From the sequence record PV390659.2: a DNA stretch of 64,000 bases; one strand, written 5' to 3'. The notes under the pieces are model-generated. The model did no database searches and was not told the origin of the DNA. It was given only the letters and a program-made list of their open reading frames with translations. Of this stretch, positions 31,944 through 34,613 are shown in pieces. Origin of the DNA: Escherichia phage vB_EcoM_P8. How positions within the stretch are numbered: the stretch's first letter is position 1; each line of letters starts with the position of its first letter. A program made the position numbers and the translations under genes.

Positions 31944-32972
31944 ATGTCATCAATACCTTGGATTGATAATGAGTTTGCATATCGTGCGCTAGCTCATTTA
32001 CCTAAATTCACACAAGTAAATAATAGTTCAACTTTTAAATTACGGTTTAGATGCCCTGTTTGTGGAGATTCAAAAACCGACCAAAATAAAGCTCGTGGAT
32101 GGTATTATGGCGATAATAATGAAGGAAATATTCATTGCTATAACTGTAACTATCATGCACCAATCGGAATATATTTAAAGGAGTTTGAACCTGATTTATA
32201 TCGTGAGTATATCTTTGAAATAAGAAAAGAAAAAGGTAAAAGTCGTCCAGTAGAAAAACCTAAAGAACTTCCTAAACAACCCGAGAAGAAAATAATTAAA
32301 TCTCTTCCGTCATGCATTAGATTAGATAAACTGACGGAAGACCATCCAATTATAAAATACGTAAAAGCTCGTTGTATTCCAAAGGATAAATGGAAATATC
32401 TTTGGTTTACAACCGAATGGCCTAAATTAGTTAATAGTATAGCACCAGGAACATATAAAAAGGAAATACCTGAGCCTCGTCTTGTTATTCCAATTTATAA
32501 TGCTAATGGAAAAGCTGAGTCTTTTCAAGGACGTGCATTAAAGAAAGATGCTCCTCAAAAATATATCACCATCAAAGCTTATCCTGAGGCAACAAAAATC
32601 TATGGTGTTGAACGAGTTAAAGATGGTGATGTATATGTTCTAGAAGGACCTATAGATTCACTTTTTATTGAAAATGGTATAGCTATTACAGGCGGTCAAT
32701 TAGACCTAGAAATTGTTCCATTTAAAGATAGACGAGTATGGGTTTTGGATAATGAACCTCGTCATCCTGATACTATTAAACGAATGACTAAATTAGTTGA
32801 CGCAGGAGAAAGGGTTATGTTTTGGGATAAATCTCCCTGGAAATCAAAAGATGTTAATGATATGATTAGAAAGGAAGGTGCAACCCCTGAACAAATTATG
32901 GAATATATGAAAAATAATATTGCCCAAGGGTTGATGGCTAAAATGCGGCTATCTAAATATGCTAAGATTTAA
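31944..32972 (+). CDS. 61: DNA primase gp61
   Basis: 342 aa, zinc ribbon CPVCGD..CYNC, TOPRIM-like core. Confidence 0.9.
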   Translation: MSSIPWIDNEFAYRALAHLPKFTQVNNSSTFKLRFRCPVCGDSKTDQNKARGWYYGDNNEGNIHCYNCNYHAPIGIYLKEFEPDLYREYIFEIRKEKGKSRPVEKPKELPKQPEKKIIKSLPSCIRLDKLTEDHPIIKYVKARCIPKDKWKYLWFTTEWPKLVNSIAPGTYKKEIPEPRLVIPIYNANGKAESFQGRALKKDAPQKYITIKAYPEATKIYGVERVKDGDVYVLEGPIDSLFIENGIAITGGQLDLEIVPFKDRRVWVLDNEPRHPDTIKRMTKLVDAGERVMFWDKSPWKSKDVNDMIRKEGATPEQIMEYMKNNIAQGLMAKMRLSKYAKI

Positions 32973-33169
32973 ATTAATCCAACTAAAGCAAATGCTAAAT
33001 CTACGAATGTATCGAGAGTAATTACTGGAATACTAACGCCATGAGCAATAGCAATTGGCGATAAAATAAAGTTCCATAGTAAAATTCCTATCATAGCAGA
33101 AATAGTAAAAGCTATACGTTTTTTATTACCTTTTATGGCATTAACAAGTGCCATTAATTTTTGTACCAT
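32969..33169 (-). CDS. small membrane protein on the opposite strand (66 aa, two predicted TM helices)
   Basis: strong AGGAGG RBS 7 nt before ATG; convergent 4-nt overlap with gene 61 stop; + strand here is otherwise a 300-nt non-coding gap. Confidence 0.5.
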   Translation of the reverse strand: MVQKLMALVNAIKGNKKRIAFTISAMIGILLWNFILSPIAIAHGVSIPVITLDTFVDLAFALVGLI

Positions 33170-33218
33170 GCGTCGTCCTCCTTTAAATTAAATATTTATC
33201 GCAAATTTTACAAAATTT

Positions 33219-33248
33219 GTTTACTTTCTCAGCTTGCTGTGGTATTAT
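33219..33248 (+). promoter_or_regulatory. T4-type early promoter driving 186-aa ORF and dam
   Basis: gtttac 33219-33224, tattat 33243-33248; GAGGA RBS before ATG 33274. Confidence 0.6.
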
Positions 33249-33273
33249 AAAATAAACTGCTGAGGATAATATA

Positions 33274-33834
33274 ATGATTAATAAAATTGTACATGAAATG
33301 GCTTTAAACGGAGATTCATATAAAATATCTGCCGTAGTTGAAAATTTCATACTTAATAAAGTAAAAGAATATTTCACTGATTGTTCAGTTAGTTATCAAG
33401 AAAAAATGGTTTTAATCGACGATACTGAAAAATCAAATAATTTGTTTTGTTCGAATTTTACAACTAAGAAGCGTACTAGAAGATTTGATATTGTCATTTC
33501 TCGCAATGGTAAAAAGCATATAATTGAAATCAAACACCAAGTTGGTGGAGGTACAGCCATTGATTCGGTTGGAATATATCTGGAAGATAAAGATAAATTA
33601 AAAGAATACACAAAAACTGAAAATCCTGTGTCATTGATGATATTAGATTTTTTGCCATGCGGATATTATCCGCGTAATAAGTGGACAAAAAGAGAATCAT
33701 TTACTGATAATCCAACCATCCAAGCAAGGTTTAATGAATATGCTAAATCACAAAACGTGTTAGTATTACTATCAAATACATATGATGAAGAATTATATAA
33801 TTCGTTTTTTGCTGCAATAAATGAGAGAATATAA
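33274..33834 (+). CDS. hypothetical PD-(D/E)xK-like nuclease-fold protein
   Basis: 186 aa; candidate catalytic triad D72, E85, K87 in [21 protein letters not shown]; TAATG coupling to dam; fold assignment is inference from motif only. Confidence 0.55.
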
Positions 33835-34613
33835 TGCTAGGAGCTATTGCGTATACAGGTAATAAACAATCATTATTACCTGAACTTAAGTCTCACTTTC
33901 CAAAATATGACAGATTCGTAGATTTATTTTGCGGAGGGTTATCAGTATCTTTGAATGTCGATGGTCCTGTATTGGCTAATGATATTCAAGAACCAATTAT
34001 TGAAATGTATAAACGTCTTATTAGCGTGTCATGGGATGACGTTTTAAAAGTAATAAAGCAATACAAATTATCAAAAACATCAAAAGAAGAGTTTTTGAAA
34101 TTACGTGAAGATTATAATAAAACTAGAGATCCTCTTTTACTTTATGTTCTTCATTTTCATGGGTTTAGTAATATGATTCGCATAAACGACAAAGGAAATT
34201 TTACTACTCCATTTGGAAAAAGAACCATAAACAAAAATAGTGAAAAACGTTTTAATCACTTTAAACAAAATTGCGATAAAATAATTTTTAGCTCATTGCA
34301 TTTTAAAGACGTCAAAATTCTAGATGGCGATTTTGTATATGTTGATCCTCCATATCTCATAACAGTTGCCGATTATAATAAATTTTGGTCAGAAGACGAA
34401 GAAAAAGACCTTTTAAATCTTTTAGACTCTTTAAATGATAGAGGAATAAAATTTGGACTGTCGAATGTTTTAGAGCACCACGGAAAGGAAAACACTCTTC
34501 TTAAAGAATGGTCTAAAAAATATAATGTTAAGCATCTTAATAAAAAATACGTCTTTAACATATATCATTCCAAAGAAAAGAATGGAACTGACGAAGTATA
34601 TATTTTTAATTAA
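33834..34613 (+). CDS. dam: DNA adenine methyltransferase Dam (GATC, N6-A)
   Basis: 259 aa, DPPY motif, matches remembered T4 Dam. Confidence 0.9.

Follow-up and report, generated by a model that had tools for sequence, protein, structure and literature searches.

A restriction-endonuclease-like gene overlapping dam in T4-type phages as half of a candidate restriction-modification cassette

The Dam enzymes of phages T2 and T4 are among the best-studied DNA methyltransferases and methylate GATC in both cytosine- and hydroxymethylcytosine (hmC)-containing DNA, although we know of no clear role that has been shown for them in the phage. Is such a methylase solitary, or does it have a partner? 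The question is raised by the dam locus of Escherichia phage vB_EcoM_P8, of which a stretch of 64,000 nucleotides (nt) was analyzed (record PV390659.2; “the window” hereafter, whose positions serve as coordinates). Here, dam is directly preceded by an open reading frame (ORF) of 186 amino acids (aa), ORF186, whose product resembles restriction endonucleases. We lean, by a modest degree over an even chance, toward ORF186 and dam being a compact phage-borne type II restriction-modification-like cassette, as suggested by sequence comparisons and a structure model.

ORF186 and dam carry the signals of a single early transcription unit (Table 1). An earlier note, made from the letters of this DNA alone, had proposed an early promoter ahead of a 186-aa ORF, an overlap of the stop codon of this ORF with the dam start, and an AT-rich composition, all of which were borne out. 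The promoter agrees perfectly with the early-promoter consensus of T4 as used in the ASO78A annotation, which itself places an early promoter at the equivalent position. A ribosome-binding site, GAGGA (33262 to 33266), precedes the ATG of ORF186 at 33274, and the two genes overlap in the sequence TAATG (33832 to 33836), the last A of TAA (33834) being the first A of the dam ATG. Host RNA polymerase would transcribe both genes from this one T4-type promoter, and the overlap would couple translation of Dam to that of the nuclease. The GC content is 0.285 for ORF186 and likewise low for dam (0.290), versus 0.349 for the window, 0.336 for gene 61, and 0.401 for gene 56. The ratio of nonsynonymous to synonymous substitution (dN/dS) of ORF186 is 0.06 to 0.2 in comparisons reaching synonymous saturation, which indicates purifying selection, and the protein matches a PHROG family of unknown function, phrog_8706 (E value of 1e-115). 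Judged by these sequence features, ORF186 is a genuine gene and not a chance ORF.

What kind of protein does ORF186 encode? The earlier note had singled out D72, E85, and K87 as a PD-(D/E)xK-like core. These residues are found where it placed them and are invariant in 10 aligned family members, down to 29% identity, as are E23, H88, Q89, the stretch G93-T-A-I-D-S98, and D125. The E...D...ExK motif is present, with the catalytic residues located on a predicted helix (residues 15 to 33) and two predicted strands (67 to 77 and 80 to 88); H88, Q89, and G93-T-A-I-D-S98 form a putative DNA-contact segment. AlphaFold2 gave a confident, single-domain model (predicted local distance difference test score [pLDDT] of 81, predicted template modeling score [pTM] of 0.79), the elements of which are a helix carrying E23, a strand, the hairpin 67-77/80-88, and then helix, strand, helix, strand, and helix. 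From the strand boundaries of the model, D72 would lie opposite E85 and K87 across the β-hairpin, and the predicted structure has the α-β-β-β-α-β core fold of the PD-(D/E)xK superfamily, so the nuclease fold that the earlier note expected of structure prediction is there. The most extensive and best structural matches were type IIP restriction enzymes of equal size. Among the families that the earlier note had named for comparison, neither a sequence nor a fold match was found to MutH/Sau3AI or DpnI (the winged-helix methyl reader of DpnI was also tried), and the similarity to DpnII is weak. A search of the PDB with the family sequence profile was empty even at an E value of 10, and an NCBIfam scan returned noise only.

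The family is small. A collection of 5.8 billion proteins yielded 10 homologues, and an exhaustive profile search yielded 12 among 1.84 billion representatives; by pattern scans, two loci were recovered from IMG/VR and three from the JGI metagenomes, and the 185,579 species genomes of bacteria and archaea gave none. Across these protein collections, IMG/VR, the JGI metagenomes, and the species genomes, no relatives beyond T4-like phages, and no cellular source, were found. Nor did any close homologue turn up whose function is known and unrelated, an outcome that the earlier note had allowed for: ORF186 homologues are annotated as hypothetical proteins in ~150 genomes, save for one GenBank record (vB_EcoM_Shinka) with the remark “putative DpnII restriction endonuclease,” and a full-text literature search found no paper describing or analyzing the gene.

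The sequence-profile matches of the ORF186 family are all weak, and all are to restriction-enzyme families (DpnII, BanI, HSDR_N, and the PADLOC model REase_II, with a best E value of 5.3e-6 among the members). Pfam DpnII (PF04556) matches 5 of the 10 members in the core only, with a best E value of 8.3e-5 and a value of 0.0048 for the window ORF186; these matches cover only model positions ~150 to 233 of 278. A DpnII-family profile was also built from database relatives of R.DpnII, its members being at least 64% identical to DpnII. The R.DpnII query was validated as a full-length PF04556 protein (E value of 2.7e-100) whose identity to entries in the database, including one that bears the name DpnII, is 99 to 100%. 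Against this low-diversity profile, hhalign aligned the ORF186 family over 95 columns (positions 12 to 112 versus template positions 124 to 226) with an E value of 4.8e-4 and a probability of 32%. In this register, E23, D72, E85, and K87 correspond to E152, D201, E214, and N216 of the DpnII family, and GGGTAID corresponds to GSGSKLN. The C-terminal half of an AlphaFold model of DpnII shows the same order of secondary-structure elements as ORF186, element for element. ORF186 falls outside PF04556 by threshold and by full-length architecture (186 aa versus ~280 aa with an N-terminal helical domain). Because of its fold, its invariant residues, its profile matches, and the comparison with DpnII, we take ORF186 for a restriction-endonuclease-like protein of minimal size that may descend distantly from the catalytic domain of DpnII.

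The strongest functional clue to ORF186 is its linkage to dam. In every homologue with a readable context, the gene lies directly upstream of a D12-class methylase gene, overlapping it by 1 to 35 nt or leaving no gap. The pair was found in three different genomic neighborhoods: between genes 61 and 56 in Tequatrovirus and in Dhakavirus MX01; between denB and ndd, beside rIIA-rIIB, in Jiaodavirus KPV15 and its metagenomic relative L022; and upstream of rIIA in the metagenomic T4-like contig L006. Contigs L005 and L007 to L011 also have an ORF186 homologue immediately upstream of a D12 methylase gene. In a rough neighbor-joining tree of Dam proteins, all ORF186-linked Dams fall into one clade, and the pairing is kept down to ~52% identity for Dam and 29% for the ORF. 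An endonuclease-like gene adjoining a DNA methyltransferase gene, the arrangement by which type II restriction-modification systems are recognized, was present in every locus examined; linkage conserved in every context is therefore as predicted for a restriction-modification-like functional pair.

The persistence of this linkage also bears on a proposal in the earlier note, that of a new homing endonuclease. ORF186 is polymorphic for presence and absence among Tequatrovirus genomes, and its dam neighbor is retained in three unrelated loci. A free-standing homing endonuclease or selfish element would cut the “empty” junction of the primase gene and gene 56 and carry dam as cargo; yet hitchhiking cargo would not persist so long, at three unrelated loci and over a divergence down to 29% identity. 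The putative DNA-contact segment is invariant across the three insertion contexts, as would be expected of a protein with a single target shared by all of them, such as the Dam site, but not of one with locus-specific homing sites. Moreover, T4 and phage KarlGJung show a deletion of ORF186 instead of its precise absence. We thus regard homing as improbable and return to the cassette.

Among ~490 Tequatrovirus-like records, 146 to 148 (~30%) have both ORF186 and dam, ~35 (~7%) have dam only (the T4 lineage, RB55, JEP6, F1, PD112, Pinarejo, and KarlGJung), and ~310 (~63%), including T6, RB51, RB6, and AR1, have neither; ORF186 without dam was not seen in any of them. That the endonuclease was not found apart from the methylase, while methylase-only derivatives do occur, is a further pattern by which type II restriction-modification systems are recognized. 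That T4 lacks a gene between 61 and dam, as the earlier note stated, is correct with regard to ORF186, but a small antisense ORF (see below) is intact in T4 and merely unannotated in the T4 record NC_000866. Alignment of the interval to the T-even genomes, which the earlier note had put forward as a check, was informative: T4 has a 549-bp deletion, T2 has a full ORF186 with a frameshift, and T6 has neither ORF186 nor dam.

How the gene was lost can be seen when the window is aligned with T4, T2, and KarlGJung. The T4 deletion, which lies between 8-bp direct repeats, takes the early promoter and codons 1 to 160 of ORF186, while the last ~80 nt of the gene stay as an “intergenic” region upstream of dam. 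KarlGJung has a separate, in-frame microhomology deletion between GATGATAT repeats; it spares the early promoter and the ribosome-binding site and leaves an ORF of 61 aa (L012, 1201 to 1386) equal to the C-terminal third of the nuclease-like protein, a remnant that could be expressed as a fragment without the core. Two independent microhomology deletions have hence removed the catalytic core and retained dam. In T2, ORF186 is full, but a T-run one base shorter changes the C terminus to NSFLLQ followed by a stop codon and leaves a gap of 13 nt to dam; the T4 and KarlGJung remnants are read in this C-terminal frame of T2. The intervals between 61 and dam in T2 and T4 differ in length by 537 nt (649 − 112). 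This agrees with Miner and Hattman (J Bacteriol 1988), who are said to have described an “insertion” of 536 bp on the 5′ side of T2 dam for which no homology was detected. By its visible scar T4 is a deletion derivative, and the orphan state of T4 Dam stems, on this sequence evidence, from the 549-bp deletion. Decay has struck the nuclease gene repeatedly and spared dam, so that T4 Dam would be the orphaned methylase of such a cassette.

Such frequent loss (the deletions in T4 and KarlGJung and the frameshift in T2) might be taken to mean that ORF186 is a decaying, nonfunctional relic in all its carriers. This reading, to which we give hardly any weight, is largely refuted by the low dN/dS over a large synonymous divergence, the intact frame in ~150 records, the invariant catalytic residues, and the perfect promoter match.

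How would the cassette work? Dam is expected to methylate GATC. By its fold and active site, ORF186 would be a Mg2+-dependent PD-(D/E)xK endonuclease, equivalent to the C-terminal, catalytic half of a DpnII-type enzyme and similar to MunI and other small type IIP enzymes that act as dimers. Most likely, it would recognize the Dam site and cut it only when unmethylated; the strict gene linkage and the weak similarity to the DpnII family point to GATC as the site. Dam and glucosyl-hmC would shield the phage DNA, and host methylation would shield the DNA of a Dam+ host, so that plausible substrates would be unmethylated DNA that is incoming or fast-replicating and foreign, e.g., that of coinfecting phages. 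T4 DNA contains ~0.4% N6-methyladenine and resists 94% of type II enzymes (PMC7653180). The pair may also behave mainly as a selfish mobile cassette. Of the module proposed in the earlier note, restriction-modification-like or methylation sensing, the nuclease half fares well in sequence terms, given the invariant catalytic residues, the weak DpnII similarity, and the conserved dam linkage, while its homing alternative and its membrane partner do not.

A methylation-directed nuclease would also fit beside dam, where linkage is equally expected. Such an enzyme would cut fully methylated GATC in cytosine DNA, by the logic of DpnI, and help to degrade host DNA, or it would nick hemimethylated sites, by the logic of MutH, the phage being spared by glucosyl-hmC. 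It would have an obvious substrate in Dam+ hosts, and in KPV15 the module adjoins denB; set against the absence of any match to the MutH/Sau3AI or DpnI families, we hold this to be unlikely.

About equally doubtful, in our estimate, is that ORF186 is a phage-versus-phage weapon that cuts unmethylated GATC even in hmC or glucosyl-hmC DNA and thereby restricts coinfecting, dam-less T-even relatives. About two-thirds of the tequatroviruses, T6 included, are without dam. If this were true, T-even Dam would gain a long-missing function as the antidote, and the weapon would help to explain an approximately threefold depletion of GATC across the Tevenvirinae, with or without the module. Among the 4-nt palindromes, GATC shows by far the strongest depletion in the window, with 73 sites observed versus 217.5 expected (observed/expected ratio, 0.34); the ratios are 0.33 in T6 (L024, 1 to 50000) and 0.30 in Mosigvirus PhAPEC2 (L026, 100000 to 149999), both without the module. 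TCGA is also low in Tequatrovirus (~0.6). With equal depletion in phages that have and do not have the module, GATC avoidance was rejected as a signature of it.

Several points weigh against a restriction-modification cassette. To our knowledge, every known host is Dam+, and the DNA of T-even phages is hypermodified, which leaves a classical self/non-self role without an obvious substrate. We also know of no report of a GATC-specific endonuclease from T2-infected cells, though the T2 allele is C-terminally frameshifted. The specificity of ORF186 is inferred from the neighboring gene only. The window protein scores 16.7 bits against a PF04556 gathering threshold of 23, the hhalign probability is just 32%, and ORF186 does not have the N-terminal ~140 residues of DpnII. 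The genotype counts come from related records and represent few independent events. In T4-like phages, more records have Dam than have ORF186 (450 versus 163), and Dam has other partners: its gene is coupled to a denV-like glycosylase gene in Aeromonas phage Asfd_1 and to unrelated small ORFs of 81 and 143 aa in KP15 and Krischvirus, respectively. With other upstream genes coupled to dam in other genera, tight coupling is not unique to a nuclease.

These last cases also speak for a nuclease-fold protein with a job other than GATC cleavage, such as a structure-specific or repair nuclease, a helper in host-DNA degradation, a DNA-binding regulator, or a partner of Dam, in which case the coupling would reflect operon packing only. 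The PD-(D/E)xK fold is common to the nonrestriction nucleases Can2, Bax1, McrC, and Vsr. Still, the best and most extensive structural matches are same-size type IIP restriction enzymes, the sequence-profile matches are all to restriction-enzyme families, and the pairing with dam was kept after relocation to other loci; we consider another job a minor possibility, if a somewhat stronger one than the other alternatives. In Asfd_1, the gene in question lies at the same primase-56 locus (L027, 1337 to 2586), where the pyrimidine-dimer DNA glycosylase gene (denV-like; Pfam E value of 6e-17) overlaps dam by 7 nt. The dam-upstream genes of other genera were tried as hidden relatives of ORF186 and rejected, the Asfd_1 and Krischvirus ORFs with hhalign probabilities of <1% and the 81-aa ORF of KP15 by a Pfam scan alone, which gave no meaningful match.

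Positions 32900 to 33900 match Escherichia phages vB_EcoM_BMB16 and G28 at 100% identity and many Tequatrovirus genomes at 95 to 98%. On the plus strand, the order is 61.1, 61, a stretch without a plus-strand ORF, ORF186, dam, gene 56, and soc. The gap of about 300 nt described in the earlier note begins where gene 61 ends (32972) and measures 301 nt. No Rfam family was detected in 32500 to 35000 at E values up to 1, so the gap contains no known RNA family. A consensus scan found a terminator-like hairpin with a T-run in it, the ASO78A annotation has a rho-independent terminator at the equivalent position, and this plus-strand hairpin likely ends gene 61 transcription. The hairpin is located inside the 5′ end of the coding sequence of an antisense ORF, the same 20 nt serving both strands. 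Between gene 56 and soc, the window has no gene (35192 to 35275), T4 has the homing endonuclease gene segF (L002, 1107 to 1781), and T6 and T2 have soc.2 and another small ORF (T6, L014, 2660 to 3069). These differences mark the entire stretch from 61 to soc as a hot spot of gene gain and loss.

The antisense ORF of 66 aa, with its AGGAGG, was found as the earlier note had described it. It overlaps the gene 61 stop by 4 nt and belongs to phrog_2024, a PHROG family of unknown function. A tblastn search found it in 692 phage records, the primase gene adjoining it in every row listed. The Mosigvirus copies are ~50% identical, neither ORF186 nor dam being present there, and T6 and PhAPEC2, both without the module, have it as well. 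In T4 (NC_000866, 17738 to 17938; L002, 3239 to 3439, plus strand), the unannotated ORF has kept the AGGAGG and the GATAAATA box, and its protein is 92% identical to the window copy; the T2 record labels it “similar to RB69ORF029w.” With a dN/dS of ~0.15 within Tequatrovirus, it is by sequence conservation a genuine gene. The first codon of the T6 copy (L014, 2050 to 2060) is ATT, not ATG, and the T6 record annotates a shorter product of 61 aa, starting at an internal ATG that is distant from the Shine-Dalgarno sequence.

A (T/G/A)ATAAATA box lies equidistantly upstream of the 66-aa ORF in six of the eight phages compared, and the P0006 contig matches at 6 of 8 positions. The variants are GATAAATA in the window, T4, and T2; TATAAATA, a perfect T4 late-promoter match, in MX01 and contig L011; and AATAAATA in T6 and PhAPEC2. 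This late-promoter-like box suggests a late antisense transcript, and the ORF is probably a late gene read against the early 61-dam transcription unit. The protein has a basic N terminus (+5) followed by two hydrophobic segments. Neither Pfam nor NCBIfam gave a match, no lysis genes were found nearby, and the label “Holin” on one UniRef entry is unsupported. The earlier note had offered this membrane protein as a possible partner of the nuclease. That candidate was rejected: the ORF occurs beside the primase gene without the full module in T4, T6, and Mosigvirus/RB69-like phages, and it therefore belongs to the primase locus and not to the module.

Table 1. Features of the gene 61 to gene 56 region in the vB_EcoM_P8 window
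Feature	Position	Strand	Description
Gene 61 (DNA primase)	31944-32972	+	342 aa; near-identical to T4 gp61; upstream context
66-aa small membrane-type ORF	32969-33169	−	“dam.1” in the T6 record; “RB69ORF029w/RB32ORF030w”-like; phrog_2024, E value of 1e-30
Terminator-like hairpin and T-run	33135-33164	+	ATGGCATTAACAAGTGCCAT; hairpin at 33135-33154; consensus scan
Expression signals of the 66-aa ORF	33177-33200	−	AGGAGG at 33182-33177, 7 nt before the ATG; late-promoter-like box GATAAATA at 33200-33193
Segment missing in T4	33206-33754	+	549 bp; between 8-bp direct repeats ATCGCAAA (33198-33205) and ATCACAAA (33747-33754)
T4-type early promoter	33219-33248	+	GTTTAC-N14-GTGGTATTAT; perfect match to the consensus of the ASO78A annotation
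ORF186	33274-33834	+	PD-(D/E)xK restriction-endonuclease-like, 186 aa; phrog_8706; “T2_31” in T2
Predicted catalytic core of ORF186	33340-33567	+	E23 at 33340-33342, D72 at 33487-33489, E85 at 33526-33528, K87 at 33532-33534, then H88, Q89, and G93-T-A-I-D-S98
T6 homopolymer run in ORF186	33805-33810	+	T5 in T2 and the T4 remnant, T8 in KarlGJung
dam	33834-34613	+	GATC N6-adenine methyltransferase; Pfam PF02086 (D12 methyltransferase), E value of 1e-50
Gene 56	34674-35192	+	

Taken together, the sequence and model comparisons suggest that ORF186 and dam join a minimal, highly divergent endonuclease to a methylase in the manner of a type II restriction-modification system, in an unusual setting, namely a virulent, hypermodified coliphage of Dam+ hosts. 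Were the nuclease active, such a coliphage would carry a restriction system, with a bearing on phage-phage competition, and the protein could supply a new minimal (186-aa) restriction enzyme of the GATC family.

The closest known counterparts are the DpnII/MboI-type systems (PF04556 with a D12/Dam-class methylase, specific for GATC), in which a PD-(D/E)xK endonuclease is likewise encoded beside a Dam-class GATC methylase. The profile similarity to ORF186 is weak and extends over the catalytic core, with four catalytic positions aligned, and the order of elements is that of the DpnII C-terminal half. In contrast, DpnII has ~280 to 290 aa with an N-terminal helical domain, which the 186-aa ORF186 lacks entirely, and ORF186 stays below the Pfam threshold; it has ExK where DpnII has ExN; and its carriers are virulent hmC phages that infect Dam+ hosts, with no copy in the 185,579 species genomes. 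The dimeric type IIP enzymes like MunI and EcoRI have no detectable sequence similarity to ORF186 and recognize sites with an AATT core. Chlorella virus PBCV-1 encodes a GATC restriction-modification system, R.CviAI/M.CviAI, whose target is unmethylated host DNA. Like the candidate phage pair, it belongs to a lytic virus and joins a nuclease to an adenine methylase for GATC, by which the viral genome is protected; its host is unmethylated, whereas the hosts of the phages with ORF186-dam are Dam+. Finally, phage methylases of the T2/T4 Dam kind are still described as orphans without an adjacent endonuclease (PMC12707154). T4 Dam, as usually described, is such an orphan; the window Dam is the same methylase, 98% identical, and in the window phage and ~30% of the tequatroviruses it is not an orphan. 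This suggests that T2/T4 Dam once belonged to a two-gene, restriction-modification-like cassette as its methylase half, and that it continues to do so in about one-third of natural T4-type phages.

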